Positions 16,767 through 34,054 of a stretch of 64,000 nucleotides of DNA are shown here, in pieces. Within the stretch, counting starts at the first letter, position 1; every line of letters begins with the position of its first letter. The notes under the pieces were generated by a model, which was not told the DNA's origin, did no database searches, and was given only the letters and a program-made list of their open reading frames with translations. A program made the position numbers and the translations under genes. This stretch comes from Escherichia phage FL18, in the sequence record PP400780. One strand, given 5' to 3'.

Positions 16767-19478
16767 ATGAAAGAATTTTACTTAACGGTTGAACAGATTG
16801 GTGATTCAATTTTTGAACGTTACATCGATTCTAATGGCCGTGAACGTACTCGTGAAGTAGAATATAAACCATCACTGTTTGCTCATTGTCCAGAAAGTCA
16901 GGCTACGAAATATTTCGATATCTACGGTAAGCCGTGTACTCGTAAGTTGTTCGCTAATATGCGTGATGCCTCCCAATGGATTAAACGCATGGAAGATATC
17001 GGACTTGAAGCACTTGGCATGGACGATTTCAAATTGGCGTATTTGTCTGACACTTATAACTATGAAATCAAATACGACCATACAAAAATTCGTGTGGCTA
17101 ACTTCGACATCGAAGTAACATCTCCGGATGGGTTCCCTGAGCCATCACAAGCAAAACATCCGATTGATGCTATCACCCATTATGACTCAATTGACGACAG
17201 GTTCTACGTATTTGATCTATTGAATTCTCCATATGGTAATGTAGAAGAATGGTCTATTGAAATCGCTGCTAAGCTTCAAGAACAAGGCGGTGATGAAGTT
17301 CCATCTGAAATTATCGATAAAATCATTTATATGCCGTTCGATAACGAAAAAGAATTGTTGATGGAATATCTCAACTTCTGGCAACAGAAAACTCCTGTCA
17401 TTTTGACTGGATGGAACGTTGAGTCATTCGATATTCCATATGTGTATAACCGAATCAAGAATATTTTTGGCGAATCTACTGCGAAACGTTTATCACCGCA
17501 TCGTAAAACTCGTGTTAAAGTTATCGAAAACATGTATGGTTCTCGTGAAATCATTACATTGTTCGGTATCTCTGTTCTTGATTACATTGACCTTTACAAA
17601 AAATTCTCTTTTACCAATCAACCGTCGTATTCTCTGGATTACATTTCAGAATTTGAATTGAACGTTGGTAAACTGAAATATGATGGCCCTATTTCTAAGC
17701 TTCGTGAAAGCAATCACCAACGATATATAAGCTATAACATCATCGACGTGTATCGTGTATTGCAAATTGATGCTAAGCGTCAGTTCATCAACTTGAGTTT
17801 GGACATGGGTTATTATGCTAAGATACAGATTCAATCTGTGTTTAGCCCAATTAAAACATGGGATGCTATTATTTTTAATAGCCTTAAAGAGCAGAACAAG
17901 GTGATTCCACAAGGTCGTTCTCACCCGGTTCAACCTTATCCCGGCGCTTTTGTTAAGGAACCTATTCCAAATCGATACAAATATGTAATGAGTTTCGACC
18001 TTACATCTCTGTATCCAAGTATTATTCGCCAAGTGAATATTAGCCCGGAAACAATAGCAGGAACGTTTAAAGTAGCTCCATTGCATGATTATATTAACGC
18101 AATCGCTGAACGTCCTTCAGATGTGTACAGTTGCTCTCCTAACGGCATGATGTATTATAAAGACCGTGATGGTGTAGTTCCAACTGAAATCACTAAGGTC
18201 TTTAATCAACGTAAAGAACATAAAGGTTACATGCTTGCAGCTCAACGTAATGGTGAAATAATTAAAGAGGCATTGCATAATCCTAATCTTTCTGTTGACG
18301 AACCATTAGATGTTGATTATCGTTTCGACTTCAGCGATGAGATTAAAGAAAAGATTAAAAAGTTGTCTGCTAAATCTCTTAATGAAATGTTGTTTAGAGC
18401 TCAACGTACTGAAGTTGCAGGTATGACTGCACAAATTAACCGTAAATTGCTTATCAACTCGCTTTATGGTGCACTTGGAAACGTTTGGTTCCGTTATTAC
18501 GATTTGCGTAATGCAACTGCAATCACAACATTCGGGCAAATGGCTTTACAGTGGATTGAACGTAAAGTTAATGAATATCTGAATGAAGTTTGTGGTACAG
18601 AAGGTGAAGCTTTCGTTCTATATGGTGATACAGACTCCATTTATGTATCTGCAGATAAAATTATTGATAAGGTTGGTGAATCTAAATTCCGTGATACCAA
18701 CCATTGGGTAGACTTCTTAGATAAGTTTGCACGTGAACGTATGGAACCTGCTATTGATAGAGGTTTCCGTGAAATGTGCGAATACATGAACAATAAACAA
18801 CACTTAATGTTCATGGACCGAGAAGCTATCGCTGGGCCTCCGCTTGGTTCTAAAGGTATTGGCGGATTTTGGACTGGTAAGAAACGTTATGCATTAAACG
18901 TGTGGGATATGGAAGGTACTCGTTACGCTGAGCCTAAACTCAAAATCATGGGTCTAGAAACTCAGAAATCTTCGACCCCTAAAGCAGTACAGAAAGCTCT
19001 TAAAGAATGTATTCGTCGTATGCTTCAAGAAGGTGAAGAATCATTACAAGAATATTTTAAAGAGTTTGAAAAAGAATTCCGTCAATTGAATTATATTAGC
19101 ATCGCGTCGGTATCTTCTGCGAATAACATTGCTAAATATGACGTAGGTGGATTCCCTGGTCCTAAATGCCCGTTCCATATTCGTGGAATTCTGACATATA
19201 ACCGAGCTATCAAAGGTAATATCGATGCACCACAAGTTGTAGAAGGTGAAAAAGTATATGTTCTGCCTTTACGTGAAGGAAACCCATTCGGTGATAAATG
19301 TATCGCATGGCCTTCTGGTACTGAAATCACAGATTTAATTAAAGACGATGTACTTCATTGGATGGACTACACTGTTCTCCTTGAGAAGACATTTATTAAA
19401 CCACTTGAAGGATTCACATCAGCAGCGAAACTCGATTATGAGAAGAAAGCATCTCTGTTCGATATGTTCGATTTTTGA
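16767..19478 (+). CDS. 43: DNA polymerase gp43 (family B)
   Basis: 903 aa; exonuclease motif FDIE, polymerase motifs SLYPS, NSLYG, YGDTDS. Confidence 0.97.
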   Translation: MKEFYLTVEQIGDSIFERYIDSNGRERTREVEYKPSLFAHCPESQATKYFDIYGKPCTRKLFANMRDASQWIKRMEDIGLEALGMDDFKLAYLSDTYNYEIKYDHTKIRVANFDIEVTSPDGFPEPSQAKHPIDAITHYDSIDDRFYVFDLLNSPYGNVEEWSIEIAAKLQEQGGDEVPSEIIDKIIYMPFDNEKELLMEYLNFWQQKTPVILTGWNVESFDIPYVYNRIKNIFGESTAKRLSPHRKTRVKVIENMYGSREIITLFGISVLDYIDLYKKFSFTNQPSYSLDYISEFELNVGKLKYDGPISKLRESNHQRYISYNIIDVYRVLQIDAKRQFINLSLDMGYYAKIQIQSVFSPIKTWDAIIFNSLKEQNKVIPQGRSHPVQPYPGAFVKEPIPNRYKYVMSFDLTSLYPSIIRQVNISPETIAGTFKVAPLHDYINAIAERPSDVYSCSPNGMMYYKDRDGVVPTEITKVFNQRKEHKGYMLAAQRNGEIIKEALHNPNLSVDEPLDVDYRFDFSDEIKEKIKKLSAKSLNEMLFRAQRTEVAGMTAQINRKLLINSLYGALGNVWFRYYDLRNATAITTFGQMALQWIERKVNEYLNEVCGTEGEAFVLYGDTDSIYVSADKIIDKVGESKFRDTNHWVDFLDKFARERMEPAIDRGFREMCEYMNNKQHLMFMDREAIAGPPLGSKGIGGFWTGKKRYALNVWDMEGTRYAEPKLKIMGLETQKSSTPKAVQKALKECIRRMLQEGEESLQEYFKEFEKEFRQLNYISIASVSSANNIAKYDVGGFPGPKCPFHIRGILTYNRAIKGNIDAPQVVEGEKVYVLPLREGNPFGDKCIAWPSGTEITDLIKDDVLHWMDYTVLLEKTFIKPLEGFTSAAKLDYEKKASLFDMFDF

Positions 19479-19518
19479 TATAATGTCATGGACGGTAAAC
19501 TAATTAAATGAGAGAAAT

Positions 19519-20154
19519 ATGAAAACTACTCCTATTACTATCGCTATTGACGCAATCATAAAACAAGCTTCTTCTTTGGCCGCTATGGCCAAAGTAATTA
19601 GTCAAAACCCTGCTCGTTATAATGCTATTCTAGAAACTCTTCGACGCCCTGGACTTAGTAATTATGAAAGCCGGGTAATTATTACAGGTGTTGGTAAGAA
19701 TGCTAATATCGCAACTAAAGCTTCCGAGACATTTGCTTCACTAGGTATTCCTAGCATGTATTTGAACACTGGGCATTATTCTCACGGTGATGCAGGATTC
19801 ATTGCGCCTAATGATGTGTTGATTCATATTAGTCGTTCTGGTAAGACTGAAGAAATGATAGGTGTTGCTAAACATCTTCGTATGATTCGTCCTCAGGTTA
19901 AACAGATTCTGTTACATTGTAACCCAGACATTCCACAAGAATACGAAGCTCTTTTTGATTATACGTTCTGTACTGGCATCGCGGTAGAGGTTGATGAGAA
20001 TTCTCTGGCTCCGACTATGTCCACTACATTGTTGTTAGCGCTTATCGATACGTTTGCTATCAACCTTTCGTCTGAACGTGGATTTACCTCTAATGATTTC
20101 CTTAAGTTCCATCCAGGCGGTGCACTAGGTGCCATGTTACGAGGCGAACAATGA
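19519..20154 (+). CDS. SIS-domain sugar-phosphate isomerase, arabinose-5-phosphate isomerase-like (KdsD/KpsF N-domain)
   Basis: 211 aa; VIITGVGKNANIATK, HGDAG, HISRSGKTEE, FHPGGALG match the KdsD/GutQ SIS signature; no CBS domains. Confidence 0.8.
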   Translation: MKTTPITIAIDAIIKQASSLAAMAKVISQNPARYNAILETLRRPGLSNYESRVIITGVGKNANIATKASETFASLGIPSMYLNTGHYSHGDAGFIAPNDVLIHISRSGKTEEMIGVAKHLRMIRPQVKQILLHCNPDIPQEYEALFDYTFCTGIAVEVDENSLAPTMSTTLLLALIDTFAINLSSERGFTSNDFLKFHPGGALGAMLRGEQ

Positions 20155-20280
20155 AAGCAATAACAATAGGACTTTTACTATTGATGCTTGTCATGACTAT
20201 CTACTGGAGCTTAACGGCTCCGGTAATGATTCCAACACTTGTAATTGGATGGATTATGATTGGACTACAAGCAAAGTATG

Positions 20281-20307
20281 AATGCTTTAACTAGAATAGT
20301 GTACAAT
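20281..20307 (+). promoter_or_regulatory. MotA-box middle promoter upstream of nucleotidyltransferase-kinase gene
   Basis: AATGCTTTAA box about 19-20 nt upstream of TACAAT -10. Confidence 0.45.
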
Positions 20308-20335
20308 ACTCCTACTTACCAATGAGGACTTTAAC

Positions 20336-22021
20336 ATGAAAAAAGCTGTTATTCTTGGTGCTGGACTGGCAACTCGTTTGTATCCAATAACGCATCATAT
20401 TCCTAAGGTGCTTGTTAACTATAAACAAGATACTATTCTGAGCAATTTGTATACAATTTATTCTGACCTTGGCGCAGATGAAATTATTGTAGTAGTTCAT
20501 TCAAAATTTGCTGAAACTGTTCGAGCTTATTGTGAACAAGAAGGGTTCAATGTGACTATTCGTACAGTTGATGAAGCGTATGGTTCTGCTTATGCTCTTG
20601 CTAAATTACACAAAGATTTAGACGGCCATAATGTAATTGTTAACTGGTGTGATATTATTCCTGATTTTGGTTCATGGTCTTGGAATGTTAACGCAATCTA
20701 TGTTAAGGGTGACGAATGTCGATATAATTTCGACGGTGAAAATATCACTAACGTAGGTTCAACAGGTGGTAATGTTGTAGGAATTTATCAGTTCAAAGAC
20801 TGGGAATTCTATATGGGTTCTACTGATGAGGAAATTCATGAATACTGCAAAGGACGTGATTTCGTAGAATTCCTTTACGGCAGCGCATTCAATAAATCAG
20901 AGCTTATGAATCTAATTGATTTAGGTGATATGCCTAAACTTGAAAAAGCTCATGAAGTTCGTGAACTTAATCGTAGTTTTAATGCAGTTGAAATTGGTGA
21001 AGAAACTGTAACTAAATTCGCATTAACCGAACAGGGTCGAGCTCTTCAGAAAGATGAGATTTCGTGGTATCTTAAAGTGAAATCAGATTCAGTTCCTCAG
21101 TTAGTTTCTGTTAATGAAAATAACTTTGAAATGGAACGCATTAAAGGTAAGCCTGCATTTGAATATATTAAATCCAAATCAAGTCTTGCTCGTCCACAAA
21201 TTGTTGATGCAATTTTAGATGCACTGAAATTCAGCACAGACACTTATTTTGTAAGTCCTGAAACTGTTCGTCGTGATTTCACTAAAGAATTCTATACGAA
21301 AGTTATTGATCGTTGTGAAAGCATTCAACCATTGATTGATTCATTTGGTAAAATCACACATGTGAACTACACTAAGATTGGACGTCTGAAGCCAATGCTG
21401 AAACAAGCTTTAGAACACCTCATTCGTTATCATAACCGTTCTCAGGGACAGTACTCTGTTATTCACGGTGACCCGAACTTCAGTAATACTATGATTACTG
21501 ATAATGGCGAAGTCAAGTTTATCGACCCTCGTGGATATTTTGGTGAAACCAAGATTTACGGGCCAAAATTGTACGATGAAGCTAAAGTGCTTTATGCTGT
21601 TTCAGGTTATGATGAATTCAATGCTAATCCGACCTGGGGGCAGTTTACTATTGATGAAACAACTTGTAATGTGACTATTAACATCAATCCATTAGTTTAC
21701 AAATATAGAAAGATGAGTTCGTTTAACGAGTATCATCATTTGGCAGTGGCAATTATCTGGATTGCATTAGGCGGTTATTTCAAGAATAATCCACTTAAAG
21801 CGGTAGCCGCATATTATAAAGGTATGGAACTTCTGACTAAGCAATTACGTAACATGGGCCGTGTACTTCAGGACGGCTCTATTAGTTATGACGTAGCAGA
21901 ACCTGTAACGGCTACTCTGATTACAAAAAATCCTGGTAAATGGGTACTAACTGATAAAGAAACTGGTGTTTCCTATCGTCCAATCGGTGGCGATATCACT
22001 CATCAATGGGAACGAATCTAA
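20336..22021 (+). CDS. bifunctional sugar-1-phosphate nucleotidyltransferase / APH-fold sugar kinase
   Basis: 561 aa; N-terminal AVILGAGLATRLYPIT nucleotidyltransferase loop; C-terminal HGDPNFSN...FIDPRG phosphotransferase catalytic/Mg loops. Confidence 0.75.
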   Translation: MKKAVILGAGLATRLYPITHHIPKVLVNYKQDTILSNLYTIYSDLGADEIIVVVHSKFAETVRAYCEQEGFNVTIRTVDEAYGSAYALAKLHKDLDGHNVIVNWCDIIPDFGSWSWNVNAIYVKGDECRYNFDGENITNVGSTGGNVVGIYQFKDWEFYMGSTDEEIHEYCKGRDFVEFLYGSAFNKSELMNLIDLGDMPKLEKAHEVRELNRSFNAVEIGEETVTKFALTEQGRALQKDEISWYLKVKSDSVPQLVSVNENNFEMERIKGKPAFEYIKSKSSLARPQIVDAILDALKFSTDTYFVSPETVRRDFTKEFYTKVIDRCESIQPLIDSFGKITHVNYTKIGRLKPMLKQALEHLIRYHNRSQGQYSVIHGDPNFSNTMITDNGEVKFIDPRGYFGETKIYGPKLYDEAKVLYAVSGYDEFNANPTWGQFTIDETTCNVTININPLVYKYRKMSSFNEYHHLAVAIIWIALGGYFKNNPLKAVAAYYKGMELLTKQLRNMGRVLQDGSISYDVAEPVTATLITKNPGKWVLTDKETGVSYRPIGGDITHQWERI

Positions 22022-22407
22022 TGCACCGTGTAGAAAACATGCTTAATCTTTGTTTTGATGTCGATGATTGTATAACAGAGTGGAATAACAATCGTGATTA
22101 CGTGAACTTCAAACCTGACGTCGAAATGGTGTCTGCCATTAATGCCCTGTATGATGCAGGGCATACCATAACGCTTTACACTGCTCGCGGTATGAAGTCA
22201 GTAGGTCCTGGACGTATAGCAATTGACATTCTCCCAAGTCTGATTCAGAACTTGGAAAACATTGGTTTGAAGTACCATAATTTGCTAACACATAAACCAG
22301 TATATGATTGGATTATCGACGACAAAGCTATGCGTCCTGACGAATTCAAAGCTCTTATGAATAAAGGCGAATTCGAAACATTTAAATCGTATAAACCGAA
22401 TCTATAA
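22021..22407 (+). CDS. HAD-superfamily phosphatase (KdsC-like size)
   Basis: 128 aa from ATG overlapping upstream stop (TAATG); HAD motif I CFDVDDCIT. Confidence 0.65.
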   Translation: MHRVENMLNLCFDVDDCITEWNNNRDYVNFKPDVEMVSAINALYDAGHTITLYTARGMKSVGPGRIAIDILPSLIQNLENIGLKYHNLLTHKPVYDWIIDDKAMRPDEFKALMNKGEFETFKSYKPNL

Positions 22408-22463
22408 TAATTTAAGTAAGACCTGCAAAAACCATCGCGTCAATTAACGTGAGATGCAAAAAA

Positions 22464-23624
22464 ATGAATACTTTTAAAATTGGAACGAATTTTGATTTAG
22501 CTCTTCTTGATAAAATCGTAGAGCTCAATAAAACTTATCCTAATAGCTTGATAAACGAAGTATACGGCTCTACAAGAGAAATGGCTTTTGTAGCAGCCAG
22601 ACCTGATTTTAGGCTTCCTGACGTTGACAAAAAGATGTTAGAAGATTACGTTAAACGTTGTAACGAATTAGGTATTTGCTTTAACTATACACTCAACACG
22701 ATAAATCCTGGTTCAAAAAGAGAACTAGTTGAGTGGAAGAAGAAAGCTATTCAGGATTATGTTCAGTATCTTTGGTCAATAGGTGTATGGCGTATTACTA
22801 TCGCTAACCCTGTTGTTATGGAAATTGTTCGTGAAGTCAATAAAGACATTGAGATTGAAGTTTCAACAATTCTACATGTCGATGCTGTAACTCAAATCAA
22901 ATACTTGCATGACCAGTATAATATCAAAAAGGTCTGCTGTGGAATTCATAAGAACCGTTCAGTTTCTTTCCTGAAGCGTGCAGCAGAGTTTTGCAATAAG
23001 AACAATATAATATTTGAAGTTCTTGTAAATGAGTTCTGTTCTAATGCTGGTAAAGGGTATACAACACATTGTAGCTATCGTGACTCTTGCTATATTTTCC
23101 ATAGTACTGATGTTACAGCTGATGATGCTAAATCCTTAAACGGATATCCTATGCAGCACTGTATTAAAGCTCGTGATACAGACCCATTTAACTGGTTGAG
23201 AACTCGTTTTGTTCGTCCTCAAGATTTGAAACTTTATAATGATATTGGTATCACTCAATTCAAAGTTTCAGGACGTACAGGTAGCACAGACTACATTTTG
23301 AAAGTTCTTGAAGCATACGCTTCTGAAAAGTTTGAAGGTAATTTGTTAGAACTGTGGAAGCCTTTAGAGACTATTTTCACTCTTGAAAACGAAACTGAGT
23401 TTTCACATACAGTAAATATTGAAACCTCTTTGTTAGATGGCTTTTTAGAAAAAAGGTGGTTCAGACATCCAGATTTCGATTGTGCTAATGAAATCTGCGG
23501 GACGACGTGTACATATTGTGAAAGATATTATAAACGTCAATTATCTAAAAACGGGTTAGCAGAAAACTCTATATCTATTATTGATATAACTAACTCTGAT
23601 GACGCTTTGAGGTACCCGGAATGA
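22464..23624 (+). CDS. U32-peptidase-family-like protein (TIM-barrel, Cys-rich)
   Basis: 386 aa from first ATG; N-terminal VYGS..FVAAR..NYTLNT resembles U32 barrel; EFCSNAGKGYTTHCSYRDSC cysteine cluster; family assignment tentative. Confidence 0.45.
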   Translation: MNTFKIGTNFDLALLDKIVELNKTYPNSLINEVYGSTREMAFVAARPDFRLPDVDKKMLEDYVKRCNELGICFNYTLNTINPGSKRELVEWKKKAIQDYVQYLWSIGVWRITIANPVVMEIVREVNKDIEIEVSTILHVDAVTQIKYLHDQYNIKKVCCGIHKNRSVSFLKRAAEFCNKNNIIFEVLVNEFCSNAGKGYTTHCSYRDSCYIFHSTDVTADDAKSLNGYPMQHCIKARDTDPFNWLRTRFVRPQDLKLYNDIGITQFKVSGRTGSTDYILKVLEAYASEKFEGNLLELWKPLETIFTLENETEFSHTVNIETSLLDGFLEKRWFRHPDFDCANEICGTTCTYCERYYKRQLSKNGLAENSISIIDITNSDDALRYPE

Positions 23625-23860
23625 TTTCTAGAAAAACTTTTAATCACCAACTTAATGAAGAGATTTTGACTACGAAACTGAACACTAACGAACAAATTCT
23701 TAAAAAGGCCCTTATGGGCCTGTTTGAAACCAAAGCGGCTAAAGTGATTAAAGGACCTGTTCAATTAGAATATTACGCTGATACATTTCTTCATAGTGTT
23801 CTTGGAAGTATCGATGCTGAAGCTTTACGTTATATCAACATTGCCAAGAAATTCAAATAA
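23621..23860 (+). CDS. hypothetical protein (79 aa)
   Basis: ATGA-coupled ORF inside the cassette. Confidence 0.5.
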   Translation: MISRKTFNHQLNEEILTTKLNTNEQILKKALMGLFETKAAKVIKGPVQLEYYADTFLHSVLGSIDAEALRYINIAKKFK

Positions 23861-26167: not shown

Positions 26168-27340
26168 ATGTCTGATTTAAAATCTCGTCTGATTAAAGCT
26201 TCTACTTCTAAAATGACTGCAGACTTGACTAAGTCTAAGCTGTTTAATAATCGTGATGAAGTCCCTACTCGTATTCCGATGTTGAATATTGCACTAGGTG
26301 GTGCTCTGAATGCAGGATTGCAATCAGGCTTGACTATTTTTGCTGCACCTTCTAAACACTTTAAAACGTTGTTTGGACTGACCATGGTTGCAGCATATAT
26401 GAAGAAATATAAAGATGCAATCTGTTTGTTTTATGACTCAGAATTCGGTGCTTCAGAATCTTATTTTCGTTCAATGGGTGTTGATTTAGACCGTGTAGTT
26501 CATACACCAATTCAGTCAGTCGAACAACTTAAAGTTGATATGACTAATCAGCTTGACGCTATTGAACGCGGTGATAAAGTTATTATCTTTATCGATTCAA
26601 TCGGTAATACTGCATCTAAGAAAGAAACCGAAGATGCATTGAACGAGAAAGTTGTAGGTGATATGTCTCGTGCTAAGGCACTTAAATCTCTTTTCCGTAT
26701 TGTGACTCCTTATCTGACTATTAAAGATATTCCATGTGTTGCAATCAACCATACCGCAATGGAAATTGGTGGATTGTACCCTAAAGAGATTATGGGCGGC
26801 GGTACAGGTATTCTTTACTCGGCTAACACTGTATTCTTTATCTCTAAACGTCAGGTTAAGGATGGCACTGAATTGACCGGTTATGACTTCACGTTGAAAG
26901 CAGAAAAATCTCGTACAGTTAAAGAGAAATCTACTTTCCCAATCACAGTTAATTTTGATGGTGGTATCGACCCATTCAGTGGCTTGTTAGAAATGGCAAC
27001 TGAAATCGGTTTTGTAGTTAAGCCTAAAGCTGGTTGGTATGCTCGTGAATTCCTTGACGAAGAAACAGGTGAAATGATTCGTGAAGAGAAATCATGGCGT
27101 GCTAAAGCTACTGATTGTGTAGAATTCTGGGGTCCTTTGTTTAAACACAAACCTTTCCGAGATGCAATTGAAACTAAATATAAACTAGGTGCTATCTCTT
27201 CTATTAAAGAAGTTGATGACGCTGTTAATGACCTTATTAATTGCAAAGCAACAACTAAAGTTCCGGTTAAAACTTCTGATGCTCCGTCTGCAGCAGATAT
27301 AGAAAACGACCTTGACGAAATGGAAGATTTCGATGAATAA
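26168..27340 (+). CDS. uvsX: RecA-like recombinase UvsX
   Basis: 390 aa, close match to T4 UvsX as recalled (MSDLKSRLIKASTSK..., acidic C-terminus). Confidence 0.95.
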   Translation: MSDLKSRLIKASTSKMTADLTKSKLFNNRDEVPTRIPMLNIALGGALNAGLQSGLTIFAAPSKHFKTLFGLTMVAAYMKKYKDAICLFYDSEFGASESYFRSMGVDLDRVVHTPIQSVEQLKVDMTNQLDAIERGDKVIIFIDSIGNTASKKETEDALNEKVVGDMSRAKALKSLFRIVTPYLTIKDIPCVAINHTAMEIGGLYPKEIMGGGTGILYSANTVFFISKRQVKDGTELTGYDFTLKAEKSRTVKEKSTFPITVNFDGGIDPFSGLLEMATEIGFVVKPKAGWYAREFLDEETGEMIREEKSWRAKATDCVEFWGPLFKHKPFRDAIETKYKLGAISSIKEVDDAVNDLINCKATTKVPVKTSDAPSAADIENDLDEMEDFDE

Positions 27341-27683: not shown

Positions 27684-29126
27684 GTGGTAGAAATTATTTT
27701 GTCTCATCTCGTATATGACCAGGCTTATTTTTCTAAGGTCTGGCCTTATATGGATTCTGAGTATTTTGAGCGTGGACCAGCAAAAAATGTCTTTAAAATT
27801 ATAAAGAGCCACGTTAACGAATATAATGCAATGCCATCTATCAATGCGTTAAAGGTGGCTTTAGATAACAGTTCTTTAACTGAAGCCGAATATAAAGGAA
27901 CTTCAGACCTAATTGAAAAATTGGCTGATACTCCTGAAGACCATGAATGGTTGGTTAAAGAAACTGAGAAATATGTCCAGCAAAAAGCGATGTATAATGC
28001 TACATCCAAAATCATTGAGATTCAGTCTAATGCTGAACTACCTCCAGAACAACGTAACAAGAAAATGCCTGACGTAGGAGCTATTCCTGATATTATGCGT
28101 CAAGCACTTTCAATTTCGTTCGATAGTTATGTTGGACATGACTGGATGGAAGACTACGAAGCACGCTGGCTTTCTTATCTAAATAAAGCGCGTAAGGTCC
28201 CGTTCAAATTAAACATTTTGAATAAAATCACTAAAGGTGGTGCTGAAACAGGTACACTAAACGTTTTAATGGCCGGTGTTAACGTTGGTAAATCTTTAGG
28301 CCTTTGTTCACTTGCTGCAGATTATCTTCAAACAGGTCATAATGTTCTTTATATTTCCATGGAAATGGCTGAAGAAGTTTGTGCTAAGCGTATAGATGCA
28401 AACATGCTTGACGTATCACTCGATGATATCGATGATGGTAACGTATCTTATGCTGAATATAAAGCCAAGATGGAAAAATGGCGTTCAAAAACAACATTAG
28501 GACGTTTAGTAGTTAAACAGTATCCTACTGGCGGAGCTAATGCTAATACATTCCGTGCATTGCTTAATGAGTTAAAACTTAAGAAGAACTTTGTGCCATC
28601 TGTAATCATGGTTGATTACTTAGGTATTTGTGGGTCTTGTCGTATCAGAGTTTACACTGAAAATAGCTACACATTAGTTAAAGCTATCGCAGAAGAACTT
28701 CGTGCATTAGCAGTAGAATCTGAAACAGTTCTATGGACTGCAGCTCAAGTAGGACGTGCAGCATGGGATGCTTCAGACATGAACATGAGTGATATCGCAG
28801 AATCAGCAGGTTTACCAGCAACGGCAGATTTCATGTTGGCTGTAATTGAAACCGAAGAACTTGCACAAGCCGAACAACAACTTATCAAACAAATCAAATC
28901 ACGATATGGTGATAAGAATAAGTGGAATAAATTCCTGATGGGTGTACGTAAAGGCAATCAGAAATGGGTTGAGATTGAGCAAGAAGGCATGAACACACCT
29001 AACACAGTAAATGAAAACGCAGGTGCTCAGATGCGTCAGGCAGAGGTGAATCGTACGGAACGCGTAGGTAAAGCCAAAGCAACACGTGCTGACCTAGATA
29101 GCTTAGCCAATGAGTTAAAATTTTAA
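27684..29126 (+). CDS. 41: replicative DNA helicase gp41 (DnaB-like)
   Basis: 480 aa, GTG start with AAGGAG RBS; Walker A MAGVNVGKS; close to T4 gp41. Confidence 0.95.
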   Translation: MVEIILSHLVYDQAYFSKVWPYMDSEYFERGPAKNVFKIIKSHVNEYNAMPSINALKVALDNSSLTEAEYKGTSDLIEKLADTPEDHEWLVKETEKYVQQKAMYNATSKIIEIQSNAELPPEQRNKKMPDVGAIPDIMRQALSISFDSYVGHDWMEDYEARWLSYLNKARKVPFKLNILNKITKGGAETGTLNVLMAGVNVGKSLGLCSLAADYLQTGHNVLYISMEMAEEVCAKRIDANMLDVSLDDIDDGNVSYAEYKAKMEKWRSKTTLGRLVVKQYPTGGANANTFRALLNELKLKKNFVPSVIMVDYLGICGSCRIRVYTENSYTLVKAIAEELRALAVESETVLWTAAQVGRAAWDASDMNMSDIAESAGLPATADFMLAVIETEELAQAEQQLIKQIKSRYGDKNKWNKFLMGVRKGNQKWVEIEQEGMNTPNTVNENAGAQMRQAEVNRTERVGKAKATRADLDSLANELKF

Positions 29127-29131
29127 TAAAA

Positions 29132-29155
29132 AGGAGACTTCGGTCTCCTTTCGGG
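29132..29155 (+). terminator. intrinsic terminator-like hairpin
   Basis: GGAGAC-TTCG-GTCTCC followed by TTTCGGGGTTT. Confidence 0.5.
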
Positions 29156-29156
29156 G

Positions 29157-29185
29157 TTTACATCTTCCTCTAGGCATGATATGAT
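29157..29185 (+). promoter_or_regulatory. T4-type early promoter
   Basis: TTTACA then 17 nt then TGATATGAT. Confidence 0.5.
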
Positions 29186-29214
29186 GTACTTACACAAACC
29201 AAGAGGAAAACATT

Positions 29215-29589
29215 ATGAATATGTCTCAAGCAATTTTTACTGCAATCACCGAAAACACAACTGTTGAAGTAGTTTCTCCGCTGGCAACCTACGTTATTCT
29301 TGCTCCTAAAACTATTGTATCTCGTATGGAAAACATGGGCAAACGTATCGTACAAATTGTTGGAGCTGGAAATCAAAAACTTGATTATCTACGAACCATC
29401 AAAGCTTATGAACATTTCCAACTCGAAAAAGGTTCTCCTATCCAGGTAGAACTCGTAAATGGTGATATCGTTCGAGCAATGTTCCATCATTTCTATGCAT
29501 TGAATGACCCATCTAAAGCGGTTCGTTTAATTGCATATGACGCAAACCAAAACGAAATCAACGCAGATGTATCTAAATTACGTTTTTAA
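29215..29589 (+). CDS. hypothetical protein (124 aa)
   Basis: ORF with AAGAGGAAAA RBS downstream of early promoter. Confidence 0.55.
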   Translation: MNMSQAIFTAITENTTVEVVSPLATYVILAPKTIVSRMENMGKRIVQIVGAGNQKLDYLRTIKAYEHFQLEKGSPIQVELVNGDIVRAMFHHFYALNDPSKAVRLIAYDANQNEINADVSKLRF

Positions 29590-29590
29590 G

Positions 29591-29619
29591 TTTACTTCTC
29601 CGGTAGTTGTGTTATTATA
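29591..29619 (+). promoter_or_regulatory. T4-type early promoter
   Basis: TTTACT then about 17 nt then TGTTATTAT. Confidence 0.45.
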
Positions 29620-29644
29620 GATCTATCAACTACTGGAGAACAAA

Positions 29645-29962
29645 ATGAAAACCATCGATTGTAAAGCAGAATTTAAGATTTTTTATCATGGTTCAAGTAG
29701 TTCAGCTAACATCGAAAACATGCTTTGTCCTCCTGAAGAAACAGGAGTTCTGTCTGAAACTGGACGTAAGAAAAACTTGGATCGTGTATTCTTTACTGAA
29801 GATATCGGTTTAGCAAAGATTTATGCAGGACGAGCAGCACGCTCTTATGGAGGTGAACCACGTCTCTATCGAGTAATTTCTCCGGTAGATGTAGTTCAAA
29901 TGAATGATACTAAAGGTGCTACAGTTTATCACGCTGAATGGGCATTTTGCGAGGAAATATGA
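29645..29962 (+). CDS. small protein with H-Y-E ADP-ribosyltransferase-like motifs (tentative)
   Basis: 105 aa; FYHGSSSSANIENM (H-G-S), VFFTEDIGLAKIYAG, YHAEWAF order resembles minimal PARP/DT-type ART core. Confidence 0.5.
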   Translation: MKTIDCKAEFKIFYHGSSSSANIENMLCPPEETGVLSETGRKKNLDRVFFTEDIGLAKIYAGRAARSYGGEPRLYRVISPVDVVQMNDTKGATVYHAEWAFCEEI

Positions 29963-30150
29963 GCAAATTAACTAAAGTTACTTTTATCGGTTGGTTTAAA
30001 AGCGGTGAGATGTTCACTAAAGATATCATGTTATCAGGTGATCGCGAAGAAATCGAGTGGGTTACGGTACAACTTGCTGAAGTGAACAATGCATTAGTTA
30101 AAGCATTTATTAATGACGAGAAAGTTTTTGAAGCTGATTTCAGAGGATAA
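29959..30150 (+). CDS. dmd: Dmd-like antitoxin (inhibitor of RnlA/LsoA)
   Basis: 63 aa; VTFIGWFKSGEMFTKDI...LAEVNNALVKAFINDEKV resembles T4 Dmd (61.5) as recalled. Confidence 0.65.
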   Translation: MSKLTKVTFIGWFKSGEMFTKDIMLSGDREEIEWVTVQLAEVNNALVKAFINDEKVFEADFRG

Positions 30151-30151
30151 T

Positions 30152-30364
30152 ATGTATTCAACTGTGTTTAAACCATCAGCATACGAATTTGCATCAACTA
30201 CACAATGGAAAGCTCTTATTCTGGAAGGATGGGAACTAATGATGGACTGTGAAGCATCTGAAAAGTTTCCACACGGCAAAGTGGACTTCGTTAAATTTGC
30301 TGTGCGTCCGACTAAACGACAGATTCGTCAAGAAAAACGCAAATTTCGAAAAAGTTTAAAATAG
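30152..30364 (+). CDS. small basic protein with VRPTKRQIR...RKSLK tail (61.4-like position)
   Basis: 70 aa; C-terminal motif shared with ORF 2242..2412 and with gp49 C-terminus (RKSLK). Confidence 0.5.
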   Translation: MYSTVFKPSAYEFASTTQWKALILEGWELMMDCEASEKFPHGKVDFVKFAVRPTKRQIRQEKRKFRKSLK

Positions 30365-30366
30365 CT

Positions 30367-30395
30367 GTTTACAAGCACCACATACTGTGTTACTA
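30367..30395 (+). promoter_or_regulatory. T4-type early promoter
   Basis: TTTACA then 17 nt then TGTTACTAT. Confidence 0.45.
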
Positions 30396-30424
30396 TATTT
30401 CTATCAACTACAGAGGAAATTGAA

Positions 30425-30793
30425 ATGAAAAAATTAATCGCTTTAGCAATGGTGTTCGGATTAACTGGATGTGGTGCTCATGGCTTTATCCCTAATAACG
30501 TTGGCCAACTGATTTACAATCCGAATGTTAAACAGTACAACCAACCTAAAGTTGAAGTGGAAGACCCGGTTACTGTAGGTAATCGAATGATTCAAGCTGA
30601 TGCCCATGCTCAACGTTATCGTGATTCTGATACCGTAGCGTTGTCAAAAGAACAACGCGTTAAAGAACATTGCTTACAGGCTACTGAAATCGCATTCATT
30701 CGCTATGTTGAAACAACTGGTAAAGAGCCTACCCAGAAACAAATCGCGAATAACTACGTCCAGTGTATTGAACGTTTAAACAAATTTAATTAA
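30425..30793 (+). CDS. lipoprotein
   Basis: 122 aa; signal peptide with lipobox LTGC. Confidence 0.65.
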   Translation: MKKLIALAMVFGLTGCGAHGFIPNNVGQLIYNPNVKQYNQPKVEVEDPVTVGNRMIQADAHAQRYRDSDTVALSKEQRVKEHCLQATEIAFIRYVETTGKEPTQKQIANNYVQCIERLNKFN

Positions 30794-30797
30794 TTGG

Positions 30798-30826
30798 TTT
30801 ACGCAAAAGTTAAAACAAGATACTAT
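30798..30826 (+). promoter_or_regulatory. T4-type early promoter
   Basis: TTTACG then 17 nt then GATACTAT. Confidence 0.45.
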
Positions 30827-30854
30827 AAACATAACAAATCAAGAGGAAATTAAC

Positions 30855-31103
30855 ATGGAATTATTCGTAGCTAGTTCAGTAGCAGTTTTAATCGCAGGTA
30901 TTGGTTCAATCATCATTTACATGTTGCCTTGGGTAATCGCACTTATTCGTGGCACAAAAAGCACAACAGCAATCTTCTTTGTATCTTTACTCTTTAACTG
31001 GACGATGATTGGTTGGATTGGAACTTTAATTTGGTCTATCGTTGCCGAAAAGAAATCTGCTCAGCAGCCTCAACAAGTAATTATTATTCGCGAAAAAGAA
31101 TAA
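30855..31103 (+). CDS. imm: superinfection immunity protein Imm-family membrane protein
   Basis: 82 aa, two TM helices; YMLPWVIALIRG...NWTMIGWIGTLIWSI fits the Imm family signature as I recall it. Confidence 0.55.
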   Translation: MELFVASSVAVLIAGIGSIIIYMLPWVIALIRGTKSTTAIFFVSLLFNWTMIGWIGTLIWSIVAEKKSAQQPQQVIIIREKE

Positions 31104-31108
31104 ACTTG

Positions 31109-31137
31109 TTTACATTATAGATGGACTATGGTATAGT
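31109..31137 (+). promoter_or_regulatory. T4-type early promoter
   Basis: TTTACA then 17 nt then TGGTATAGT within GGACTA...TAGTCC inverted repeat. Confidence 0.45.
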
Positions 31138-31166
31138 AGTCCTATCAAATCAACTAAGGAGTTAAA

Positions 31167-31460
31167 ATGAAAAAGTTATCATTGGCAGCAATCTTACTTG
31201 CAGTATCATGTGCACCGGCTCCAGTTACGGCAGGTTATGATAAAGACCTCTGTGAGTGGTCAATGACTGCAAATCAAGAAGATGTTGAACAACAAATCTT
31301 CTCTGATATCATGAACATCACTAAACGAGACCGTCCTAATATGGTTAATAAAGTTGTTGAACAACTTAAGTCTGGCGGTATCATGCAGTACAACTATGTT
31401 TTGTATTGTGACCCTAATTTCGATAACAAAGATATCGTAACCGAAATCACAGGTGAATAA
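31167..31460 (+). CDS. sp: spackle periplasmic protein Sp
   Basis: 97 aa; signal peptide then GYDKDLCEWSMTA...GGIMQYNYVLYCD closely resembles T4 Sp (61.3) as recalled. Confidence 0.8.
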   Translation: MKKLSLAAILLAVSCAPAPVTAGYDKDLCEWSMTANQEDVEQQIFSDIMNITKRDRPNMVNKVVEQLKSGGIMQYNYVLYCDPNFDNKDIVTEITGE

Positions 31461-31461
31461 T

Positions 31462-32112
31462 ATGATTTATTACATGCACAAAAACGCACCATTTAAATAT
31501 GGTAAATTTCCTAATGCACAATGTTATAATATAACGCCGAATGAAAATAATAACGGATACCATATTGGTGTAATTTTTGTAATTGTTAAAGATAACGAAA
31601 TCGTTGCCTGGGCAGATTTTAAAGGTACAACATATGATGTTAATCCTGTGCCTTTCACATATTACAATATAATGGATTTGGCATATGATTATAATTGGTT
31701 TACTCATGACACGTTGGCTCATATTGAAGGTGTAGGATTTGACATCTCTTATTCTAGCTATTCATTATGTCCTATGAGCCGAGCTCACGGTAAAGATGTA
31801 TCATATCTTTCAATTCGGAAACGTGTAAACTTCAAACGTAGTACAGAGTATGTTGGTGGACTCTTTGTTAAAGATAATAAAATAACCCGTATTAGTTATC
31901 CTTTAAGTGTAGGTCAAAAAGATGTTGATGTTGATTTAGACTTAACTGAAAGTAACATTAATCGTATTGCTTCTGTATATTTTGATATCGATGAAAAAAT
32001 TGTAGTGTGTGGATACGAATTACCACCTGAAGAAAAGGCTGAAACAATTGAAGTCGAATTAGAAATTTCTGTTGATGACCAAATATTTAACGCATTTATG
32101 AATCGAGGTTAA
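31462..32112 (+). CDS. hypothetical protein (61.2-like position)
   Basis: 216 aa from ATG overlapping sp stop. Confidence 0.6.
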   Translation: MIYYMHKNAPFKYGKFPNAQCYNITPNENNNGYHIGVIFVIVKDNEIVAWADFKGTTYDVNPVPFTYYNIMDLAYDYNWFTHDTLAHIEGVGFDISYSSYSLCPMSRAHGKDVSYLSIRKRVNFKRSTEYVGGLFVKDNKITRISYPLSVGQKDVDVDLDLTESNINRIASVYFDIDEKIVVCGYELPPEEKAETIEVELEISVDDQIFNAFMNRG

Positions 32113-32113
32113 A

Positions 32114-32311
32114 ATGACTACTGCAATTTGCACTGGTTCTAAAATTAGTGTTTTTACAAGTTTTGAAGATTATGAAGTTGTTTCAAAACACCAATGCCAT
32201 ATTAGCGTAAAAGCTAATGATGGTGTAATTTGGAATATTCCACACTATGAAGACACTACATATGAAGTCACAGATGCGAACGGTGATAAAGCGATCTTTG
32301 TGATTGATTAA
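32114..32311 (+). CDS. hypothetical protein (65 aa)
   Basis: ATG 1 nt after previous stop. Confidence 0.5.
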   Translation: MTTAICTGSKISVFTSFEDYEVVSKHQCHISVKANDGVIWNIPHYEDTTYEVTDANGDKAIFVID

Positions 32312-32330
32312 ATATACTCAGGAGGTACCT

Positions 32331-32798
32331 ATGGGTATTATTAACACTGCAATAGATTCTGTTTATGCATATAAGTTTATTCGACTAATGCAAAAACCTT
32401 TTACTGAATGGAAAGCATACGAAGCCAAAATCATCGATGAACGTGGAAGTGTTCTTAAACGTCCTTCTACTCCAGAAGAGAAAGCGGCTTATACACCTTT
32501 TCATGCTTCAGTTCGTTCAATGAAGCGAATGATGAGCACTGTTCCAGGTCTTAATGGAATGGCCTCAATGATGTCTGCCTGGAGTGCTGTAGCTTCACGC
32601 TATAACATTACAGAAGAACAACAGAAAGAAATATTTAAAGAACTCCCTTTATTTGAGGATATGGTTGCTGGTGATTCAGGTGGCAGCCCTCAAGCTATTG
32701 CATCAGGAACAACTACAGGTGCAGTCGTAAATAAAGGCCCCGAACAAATTCCTTCCAAGAAAAGAAAGCGAATTAAAGTAAATATTAATAAGTTGTGA
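32331..32798 (+). CDS. hypothetical protein (61.1-like position)
   Basis: 155 aa from ATG with perfect AGGAGG RBS (track start is TTG). Confidence 0.55.
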   Translation: MGIINTAIDSVYAYKFIRLMQKPFTEWKAYEAKIIDERGSVLKRPSTPEEKAAYTPFHASVRSMKRMMSTVPGLNGMASMMSAWSAVASRYNITEEQQKEIFKELPLFEDMVAGDSGGSPQAIASGTTTGAVVNKGPEQIPSKKRKRIKVNINKL

Positions 32799-32837
32799 TA
32801 AGATGGCCTTATTAATTTAAGGCCTCTGGAGAATACT

Positions 32838-33860
32838 ATGGCTGAATGGATAGATAATGAATTTGCTTATCGTGCGTTTTCTCACCTACCTCGTTTTAGA
32901 CAAATCAATAATTCAAGCACATTTAAATTAACATTTCGATGTCCAGTTTGTGGCGACTCCCAGACAGATGCAATGAAAGCTCGCGGATGGTATTACGGTG
33001 GTACTCCTGGTAATGTACATTGCTATAACTGTCAATACCACAATACAATTTCCGGATACTTAAAAGAGTACGATGAAGAGCTTTATCGCGAATATCTAAT
33101 GGAAGTTCGTAAAGAAAAAGCTAGAATGGAACCAAAGATTGAAAAGGTTCCTGAAGCTAAGCCGGAGCCAGAGAAAAAGACTATAAATTCTTTGCCGTCT
33201 TGTTCTCGTCTGGACAAGTTGCCTGAAGAGCATCCTATTGTGAAATATGTTAAGTCTCGGTGTATTCCTAAAGAATCATGGAACAGATTATGGTTCACAT
33301 TAGAATGGCCCAAATTGGTCAACAAGATTCAACCTGGTACGTATAAGAAAGAGATTCCCGAACCACGTTTAGTGATTCCTATTTTTAATAAAGACGGGAA
33401 GGCCGAGTCATTCCAAGGACGTGCACTTCGTAAAGATGCTCCTCAGAAATATATCACTATTAAAGCATTTGAGTCTGCAACAAAAATTTATGGTGTTGAA
33501 CGTGTTAAGGAAGGAGACGTCTGGGTAATGGAAGGCCCTATTGATAGTTTATTCATACCCAATGCAATCGCTATTACAGGCGGCTCAATAGATTTAGATG
33601 TGGTACCATTTAAAGAACGTCGGGTATGGGTAATGGATAATGAACCTAGGCATCCGGATACTATAGCTCGCATGAAGCGATTAGTTGATGCAGGCGAACG
33701 TGTCATGTTCTGGGACCGAGCTCCATGGAGTTCAAAGGATGTGAATGATATGGTAATGAAAGAAAATGCAACACCACAAGAAATTTTAGAATATATGAAA
33801 CAGAATATTTCAAGTGGGTTGCATGCTAAAATGAGATTATCTCGTTATTCGAAGATTTAA
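32838..33860 (+). CDS. 61: DNA primase gp61
   Basis: 340 aa; N-terminal zinc ribbon CPVCGDS...CYNC, TOPRIM-like core. Confidence 0.92.
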   Translation: MAEWIDNEFAYRAFSHLPRFRQINNSSTFKLTFRCPVCGDSQTDAMKARGWYYGGTPGNVHCYNCQYHNTISGYLKEYDEELYREYLMEVRKEKARMEPKIEKVPEAKPEPEKKTINSLPSCSRLDKLPEEHPIVKYVKSRCIPKESWNRLWFTLEWPKLVNKIQPGTYKKEIPEPRLVIPIFNKDGKAESFQGRALRKDAPQKYITIKAFESATKIYGVERVKEGDVWVMEGPIDSLFIPNAIAITGGSIDLDVVPFKERRVWVMDNEPRHPDTIARMKRLVDAGERVMFWDRAPWSSKDVNDMVMKENATPQEILEYMKQNISSGLHAKMRLSRYSKI

Positions 33861-34054
33861 ACCAGACCTATAATAGCAAAGGCCAAATCAACTACAGTAT
33901 CCAATGGAACAGAAGGAACTATAATACCATGGGCAACTAACAATGGTGCAATCCCGAAGTTCCATGAAATAATGCCACCTACAACTATTGCAGCGATAGC
34001 AGTTTTCTTTTTATTGCCTTTAATAGCGTTGATTAACGATGGAAGTTTAAACAT
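33857..34054 (-). CDS. small membrane protein on opposite strand
   Basis: 65 aa, two hydrophobic segments; ATG preceded by AAGGAG at 5-nt spacing; in 61-56 intergenic space. Confidence 0.5.
   Translation of the reverse strand: MFKLPSLINAIKGNKKKTAIAAIVVGGIISWNFGIAPLLVAHGIIVPSVPLDTVVDLAFAIIGLV

Follow-up and report, generated by a model that had tools for sequence, protein, structure and literature searches.

The interval between the helicase gene 41 and the primase gene 61 of Escherichia phage FL18 (sequence record PP400780; the window analysed here is a stretch of 64,000 nucleotides) packs ten short open reading frames (ORFs) into about 3.7 kb, and three consecutive genes among them, imm.1, imm and sp, encode proteins predicted to be targeted to the cell envelope. 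This arrangement raises the question of whether the three genes constitute a consolidated superinfection-exclusion module, as a previous sequence-only reading of this DNA had proposed, or whether they became neighbours by the reshuffling of independent cassettes. Our analysis favours the second possibility. The interval is probably the Mosigvirus version of the T-even 41-61 early accessory region, made up of five promoter-led cassettes that would encode ten separately acting small proteins, and the clustering would be a product of cassette shuffling and not a sign of functional integration into a module. Within the cluster, the association of imm.1 with imm looks real and ancient, and the association of this pair with sp looks incidental.

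Across positions 29100-32850 the interval shows 98.3% nucleotide identity to positions 17265-21013 of phage RB69 (NC_004928; 3.75 kb), and from RB69p041 to RB69p031 that reference displays the same genes in identical order and with identical names (ORF041c, ORF040c, dmd, 61.4, imm.1, imm, sp, 61.2, ORF033c and 61.1). Judged by this likeness, the window is that of an RB69-like T-even phage of the genus Mosigvirus. At least 80% of the 41-61 interval is covered in 152 phage records, and the approximately 150 genomes with this layout are 95-99% identical. All ten ORFs were found on the + strand at the starts that the sequence-only reading had given, and a Shine-Dalgarno sequence, read from the sequence, stands 5-9 nucleotides (nt) 5′ of the start in every one of them (10 of 10). 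With the flanking genes, and with lengths in amino acids (aa), the region comprises:

26168-27340: uvsX, upstream of the 41-61 interval
between uvsX and gene 41: gene 40
27684-29126: helicase gene 41, left border of the interval
29215..29589, + strand: homologue of RB69ORF041c, 124 aa; phrog_10668 (E 4e-86)
29645..29962, + strand: homologue of RB69ORF040c, 105 aa; predicted minimal ADP-ribosyltransferase fold
29959..30150, + strand: dmd, antitoxin against RnlA/LsoA toxins by homology; PF17587
30152..30364, + strand: gp61.4 homologue (DUF7279); PF23945 (E 3.6e-20)
30425..30793, + strand: imm.1, predicted lipoprotein of 122 aa; PF17578/DUF5481
30855..31103, + strand: imm, 82 aa, superinfection immunity by homology; PF14373
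31167..31460, + strand: sp (spackle), periplasmic inhibitor of the gp5 tail lysozyme; PF25676
31462..32112, + strand: gp61.2 (AdfA), anti-DarT factor A, R164 allele; PF23813
32114..32311, + strand: homologue of RB69ORF033c, 65 aa; phrog_3249 (E 2.9e-34)
32331..32798, + strand: long-form gp61.1, 155 aa; phrog_2086 (E 1e-73)
32838-33860: primase gene 61, right border of the interval

The way in which these genes are divided among promoters bears directly on the question. Early promoters were called as matches to the T4-type pattern GTTTAC-N16-19-TAnnnT, which matches at 22 sites of the window, whereas shuffled sequence gives an expectation of 3.7. Of the 19 sites on the + strand of the window, five fall inside the 3.7 kb; the rate elsewhere in the window would predict 0.86 (P ~0.002), so that the interval deserves its earlier description as promoter-dense. 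The five sites are the following:

29156..29185, + strand: early promoter 1 (GTTTAC, spacer, TATGAT), serving ORF 29215
29590..29618, + strand: early promoter 2 (GTTTAC, spacer, TATTAT), serving the run 29645-dmd-61.4
30367..30396, + strand: early promoter 3 (pattern match), serving imm.1
30797..30826, + strand: early promoter 4 (pattern match), serving imm
31108..31137, + strand: early promoter 5 (pattern match), serving sp-adfA-033c-61.1

Each of the five gaps of 55-88 nt contains one of these promoters, the remaining gaps measuring -4 to 39 nt, and the promoters delimit five predicted transcription units: ORF041c from promoter 1; ORF040c, dmd and 61.4 from promoter 2; imm.1 from promoter 3; imm from promoter 4; and sp, 61.2, ORF033c and 61.1 from promoter 5. 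The assertion that most of the ORFs possess an early promoter of their own was overstated, since five promoters serve ten ORFs and only three of these (29215, 30425 and 30855) form single-gene units; the other seven are arranged in two tight runs, 29645-29959-30152 and 31167-31462-32114-32331, with gaps of -4 to 19 nt. The genes imm.1, imm and sp stand in a row within 1.04 kb, and because each of them has its own predicted promoter they do not form one operon. No MotA-box middle-promoter motif was detected on the + strand of the interval, and the host RNA polymerase would be expected to fire all five early promoters after infection.

The identities of the proteins concerned are clear. The product of ORF 30855 matches the profile PF14373 (Imm_superinfect) along its whole length (positions 1-42 of 42; E 1.5e-15) with 57.2 bits, well above the cut-off of 27.9, as well as phrog_1039, 'immunity to superinfection' (E 1e-30). 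It is identical to T4 Imm (83 aa) at 54 of 83 positions (65%) from end to end, the C-terminal VIIIREKE being common to both, and it contains two hydrophobic segments at approximately residues 3-31 and 40-59 (Kyte-Doolittle 19-residue windows above 1.6), all of which agrees with the earlier recognition of an Imm-family protein with two transmembrane segments. A scan of viral contigs with the Imm alignment yielded seven loci, all from Tequatrovirus or Mosigvirus. Likewise, Spackle was correctly recognized, as both its profile score (PF25676, 145 bits against a cut-off of 27) and its identity to T4 Sp (66%) indicate. It retains the disulfide cysteines C29 and C81 together with the gp5 lysozyme contacts S32, M33, T34, A35, Q37 and N76, as these residues are listed in PMC7677548, and its export signal MKKLSLAAILLAVSCAPAPVTA, read by eye, stands before the conserved mature start GYDKDLCEW. 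The signal peptide of T4 Spackle (T4 2259-2552) contains a perfect lipobox, LASC, at residues 12-15; the corresponding sequence here, AVSC, is off pattern.

The lipoprotein noticed directly upstream of imm turned out to be Imm.1, already named in both RB69 and T4. It matches PF17578 (DUF5481) with 37.3 bits (cut-off 27) and phrog_1754 with an E value of 2.5e-29, and is 32% identical to T4 Imm.1. A pattern search located the lipobox LTGC at residues 13-16, with Cys16 and a Gly at +2, from which lipidation is predicted. The lipobox is kept in eight of nine members of the family and Asp occurs at +2 in none. The metagenomic homologue P0122 (46% identical) carries LAGF, followed by AHA, in place of the lipobox Cys; it would be a soluble periplasmic protein, so that lipid anchoring may be non-essential to the Imm.1 family. 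In the RefSeq record of T4 (NC_000866, 9137-9514) imm.1 is named 'iduronate sulfatase', which looks like an annotation error, the 125-aa lipoprotein matching DUF5481 and phrog_1754 only. At tblastn sensitivity, 656 phage records contain Imm.1; identity reaches at least 95% in 154 of them and stays under 60% in 502, and these counts parallel the Mosigvirus and Tequatrovirus classes of the Imm matches. The family is narrow: a word-indexed homologue search returned three matches and an exhaustive profile search eight clusters among 1.84 billion representatives.

Gene order among T-even phages was compared to trace the origin of the cluster. The relevant arrangements, with the lipobox of the lipoprotein in each case, are:

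T4 (Tequatrovirus): 43, imm.1, imm, 42; lipobox LAGC
Merlin (Moonvirus): 43, further genes, 146-aa lipoprotein, imm, 42; lipobox LTGC
Roth76 (genus not in the record): 43, 147-aa lipoprotein, imm, 42; lipobox LTGC
IME281 (Dhakavirus): 43, imm, 166-aa lipoprotein; lipobox LSGC
P896 (Gaprivervirus): 43, imm, 47-aa ORF, 167-aa lipoprotein; lipobox LSGC
present phage and RB69 (Mosigvirus): 61.4, imm.1, imm, sp; lipobox LTGC

The lipoproteins of all the compared genera match phrog_1754 (E 2e-15 to 2e-52), and none has Asp at +2. In each of the six T-even genera examined, an Imm.1-family lipoprotein adjoins imm or stands at most one gene away: the gene lies directly upstream of imm in the present phage, RB69, T4, Merlin and Roth76, downstream in IME281, and one gene off in P896. 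As the pairing recurs in all six genera, it is by this comparison ancestral and not a Mosigvirus novelty, and its age and persistence constitute reasonable gene-neighbourhood evidence of a functional link. The location of the pair is another matter. In T4, IME281, P896, Merlin and Roth76 imm resides in the 43-42 interval, and the pair is found between 41 and 61 in Mosigvirus only. The 41-61 layout compared across T-even genomes thus contains one feature restricted to Mosigvirus, namely imm.1 and imm beside sp, and one that is older, the imm.1-imm pairing itself; judging from these gene orders, the sole Mosigvirus-specific event is that the pair came to lie between 61.4 and sp.

The former site of the pair is occupied by other genes in the present phage. 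Its 43-42 interval (19519-23860) contains five ORFs, including those of an SIS-domain protein, a 561-aa nucleotidyl-transferase and a U32-peptidase-like protein, and no imm, in agreement with the previous statement that imm lies between 42 and 43 in T4 where this phage has a foreign cassette. Presumably this could be the arabinosyl-hydroxymethylcytosine DNA-modification cassette of RB69. No second copy of imm or imm.1 was found in the window. A comparably arranged cassette stands between 43 and uvsX in IME281 (Dhakavirus), yet imm stays right after gene 43 there. The arrangement imm.1-imm-sp could have arisen by a single move of the ancestral pair out of the 43-42 interval, the likely route being recombination between near-identical promoter spacers. 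A common spacer architecture is shared by the present phage and the T4 spacers at 61.4-sp, 41-dmd and 43-imm.1, and promoter-flanked cassettes are a published shuffling route in T4-type phages (PMC2839356); taken together, the shared spacer design and the published shuffling make relocation by spacer recombination plausible. Similarity between particular spacers, such as the imm-sp spacer of this phage and the 41-dmd spacer of T4, was considered as a mark of recombination junctions; this reading was set aside as unproven, since the shared GGACTATGGTATAGT recurs at other promoters of the window.

If the interval is such an assembly of early cassettes, its products would act at different places. 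By homology, exported Sp would bind the gp5 lysozyme of later-arriving phages in the periplasm, and Imm in the inner membrane would block the transfer of their DNA. Imm.1 would be lipidated and tethered to the envelope, the missing Asp at +2 predicting an outer-membrane destination under the E. coli sorting rule, and would probably assist or modulate Imm. In the cytoplasm, Dmd would neutralize toxins of the RnlA/LsoA type, and AdfA would serve by homology as a DarT-binding decoy, represented here by its R164 allele. The 105-aa protein with the predicted ADP-ribosyltransferase fold, expected to be co-produced with Dmd, would probably ADP-ribosylate some target.

This last protein is the least explored item of the interval. 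The stop codon of ORF 29645 overlaps the start of dmd (ATGA), and the assignment of the dmd product as a Dmd-like antitoxin stands on both its profile match (PF17587, 77.2 bits against a cut-off of 27; E 1.3e-21) and its 58% identity to T4 Dmd over 60 aa. The product of ORF 29645 has no match in Pfam or NCBIfam, and none in the PDB by sequence or profile; the ADP-ribosyltransferase core fold was predicted, the link being made by fold search alone. In 38 sequences four residues are invariant, H15 (YHGS), F49 (VFFT), Y60 (IYAG) and E103 (AFxE), which are candidates for the catalytic His, aromatic and Glu residues, and we take their order and spacing to resemble those of diphtheria toxin. Conservation of the protein is very strong among the T4-like phages of Escherichia, Klebsiella, Acinetobacter and Aeromonas; the matches from Vibrio phages are weaker. 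A few GenBank records name it 'ADP-ribosyl transferase'. The small H-Y-E-clade proteins Arr (rifampin ADP-ribosyltransferase), the nicotinamide adenine dinucleotide (NAD)-binding lobe of Tpt1/KptA and the anti-CRISPR AcrIF11 are all larger than 105 aa, the RNA-binding lobe of Tpt1 is lacking in ORF 29645, and searches of Pfam and of PDB profiles detected no sequence relationship to Arr, Tpt1/KptA or AcrIF11. The gene is missing from the 41-61 interval of T4 and therefore escaped classical genetics.

Several points weigh against an accessory region of shuffled, separately acting genes as we propose it. The conserved imm.1-imm pairing argues for some functional link, and to say that all the products act separately may be too strong for this pair. 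The role ascribed to Imm.1 is a guess from gene neighbourhood: the family being narrow, its alignment is too shallow for a good structure model, the model obtained was poor (mean pLDDT 62), and a fold search with it matched no known fold. The promoters are motif matches alone, and expression in this phage is predicted only. As to the relocation, neither a recombination scar nor mini-circle evidence was found, and its route is inferred.

These considerations leave room for a different emphasis, which we put forward tentatively as a possibility, namely that the interval contains two new players at once. Imm.1 would be a working partner of Imm, the two of them blocking DNA delivery across the envelope, with Imm.1 anchored in the outer membrane and Imm placed in the inner one, and the 105-aa ADP-ribosyltransferase-fold protein would be an enzymatic counter-defence or host-takeover factor lacking in T4. 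Literature searches for 'imm.1' and for the ORF040c identifiers returned unrelated papers only. For decades no role was proposed for Imm.1, a lipoprotein found with imm in each of the genera compared; if the partnership were real, Imm.1 would be a second component of T-even superinfection immunity. The very small and very conserved ADP-ribosyltransferase-fold protein, whose gene immediately precedes dmd in numerous T4-like phages, would be a second, modest lead.

It appears unlikely, on the other hand, that imm.1, imm and sp together form a consolidated superinfection-exclusion module whose linkage was selected for joint inheritance in co-infection recombination or for physical cooperation across the envelope. 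Such a module would account for three envelope-targeted genes following one another so closely, for the maintenance of the layout in approximately 150 Mosigvirus genomes and for the nearness of Imm.1-family lipoproteins to imm in six genera. However, the three genes are served by separate promoters, sp is adjacent in one genus only, imm and sp lying 5-9 kb apart in the five others, and the approximately 150 genomes are so nearly identical that they amount to one evolutionary event. Since the promoters are separate and these genomes count once, the adjacency of sp gives no evidence of functional consolidation. Moreover, Lu and Henning reportedly observed in 1989 that cloned T4 imm by itself confers exclusion, and are said to have found that Imm and Sp of T4 act independently. 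The module as proposed thus finds partial support, in the imm.1-imm pairing kept across six genera. Very improbable, finally, is the notion that Imm.1 is an independent outer-membrane lipoprotein masking or inactivating a phage receptor like T5 Llp or phi80 Cor, its place beside imm being historical and its mechanism unrelated to that of Imm: the conserved lipobox followed by residues other than Asp would suit it, as would the much faster divergence of Imm.1 than of Imm (between T4 and the present phage, 32% identity for Imm.1 and 65% for Imm), which fits variable surface targets, and T5 Llp is reportedly a precedent for an exclusion-causing lipoprotein, but in sequence and fold Imm.1 resembles neither Llp nor Cor nor the others searched, and without a functional link it would be difficult to account for a neighbourhood with imm that has lasted in six genera while order and location changed.

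We thus return to the accessory region of shuffled cassettes, to which the remaining genes also belong. That the ORFs outside the presumed exclusion set might have anti-defence functions was supported in at least one case, ORF 31462, whose product is the published AdfA, an anti-DarT factor discovered in RB69 (PMC11257639). It matches PF23813 with 393 bits (profile positions 1-211 of 211) and is 97.7% identical to the RB69 protein, from which it differs at five residues. Codon 168, corresponding to residue 164 in RB69 numbering, encodes Arg, as in wild-type RB69; T4 has His. The R164 form neither binds nor neutralizes DarT1, unlike the H164 form found in T4 (PMC11257639), which predicts that the allele of the present phage, although a member of the family, is inactive against that particular DarT1, and that the phage is sensitive to DarTG1 like RB69. 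ORF 32331, on the contrary, is a poor candidate for a plastic anti-defence gene because gp61.1 is conserved in its long form even among distant T4-like phages, those of Aeromonas, Acinetobacter and Klebsiella; T4 keeps its C-terminal third only. In the RB69 reference this gene (6231-6697 of L001) is split by a frameshift into ORF032c and 61.1, through an error of sequencing or else a mutation of the laboratory strain; the ORF of 155 aa is intact in the present phage and in two further contigs of Mosigvirus.

The plasticity attributed to the region was substantiated by two further genes. ORF 29215, without matches in Pfam or NCBIfam, is limited to Mosigvirus; of the 134 phage records that contain it, 132 show an identity of at least 95%. 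Gene 61.4 has been cleanly deleted in two Mosigvirus contigs that are otherwise 98-100% identical (L003 6495-6571; L004 719-794), with a break between the short similar sequences GATTTCAGA and AATTTCGAA, which lie at the ends of dmd and 61.4. Beyond the interval, a 65-aa hydrophobic ORF homologous to RB69ORF029w (33857-34054) overlaps the 3′ end of gene 61 by 4 nt and is the sole minus-strand gene of the neighbourhood.

Four predicted hairpins accompany these genes, and no Rfam family matched in the interval:

29130..29151, + strand: GC-rich hairpin with a GGAGAC-UUCG-GUCUCC core just 3′ of the gene 41 stop (-12.8 kcal/mol, z -2.4)
29596..29640, + strand: 14-bp hairpin (-20.5 kcal/mol, z -4.6; 0 of 200 shuffles as stable)
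imm-sp spacer, + strand: hairpin over the -10 box of promoter 5 (-15.4 kcal/mol, z -2.3)
32805..32824, + strand: 7-bp hairpin GGCCUUA/UAAGGCC between 61.1 and gene 61 (-13.9 kcal/mol, z -2.1)

The first is terminator-like, with promoter 1 directly 3′ of it, and IME281 has a similar hairpin and a T-run at the same place, 3′ of gene 41; the last is followed by no U-run. The second encloses the -10 box of promoter 2 and contains in its 3′ arm the Shine-Dalgarno GGAG of ORF 29645. We infer that this stem would stop read-through from promoter 1 and mask the ribosome site on any read-through RNA, and that ORF040c would therefore be translated from promoter 2 transcripts only. The leader and 3′ arm before this gene (CTATCAACT..GGAGAA..ATG) are kept in three genera (window 29590-29644; L010 18228-18290; L011 10665-10711). 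The complementary 5′ arm was seen in the Mosigvirus sequence only, where ORF041c has been added upstream. The spacers on either side of imm.1 have no stable hairpin (z +0.9 and +1.2).

As a description of the region, our analysis adds nothing: the interval is already known, its genes having all carried names since the 2003 annotation of RB69, AdfA has been characterized in RB69, and the mechanism of Sp is solved. T4 shares with the present phage homologues of dmd (58%), 61.4, sp (66%), 61.2 (65%), imm (65%) and imm.1 (32%), as well as the position of imm.1 directly upstream of imm and the design of the early-promoter spacers. In T4, however, imm.1 and imm lie approximately 6 kb away, between 43 and 42, and are separated by 11 nt without a promoter. 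The T4 41-61 interval consists of dmd, 61.4, sp, 61.2 and 61.1, without ORF041c, the small ADP-ribosyltransferase-fold gene or ORF033c, and its gp61.1 is short, with 54 aa against 155 in the present phage.

A parallel in organization is provided by the PeSL cassettes of RB49 and phi1 described by Arbiol et al. in 2010 (PMC2839356), which are likewise short ORFs annotated without function and flanked by early-promoter spacers, some of these with a stem-loop over or before the promoter, and whose gene content varies among close relatives. The two designs differ in their promoters, those of PeSL following a sigma-70-like consensus and those described here being of the T4 early type (GTTTAC). They also differ in their spacers, since a PeSL spacer combines an early promoter with a stem-loop, whereas here a promoter is present in all five spacers and a stable hairpin in three (41-041c, 041c-040c and imm-sp). 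The T-even elements are termed analogues of PeSL, not homologues, in that same paper (PMC2839356).

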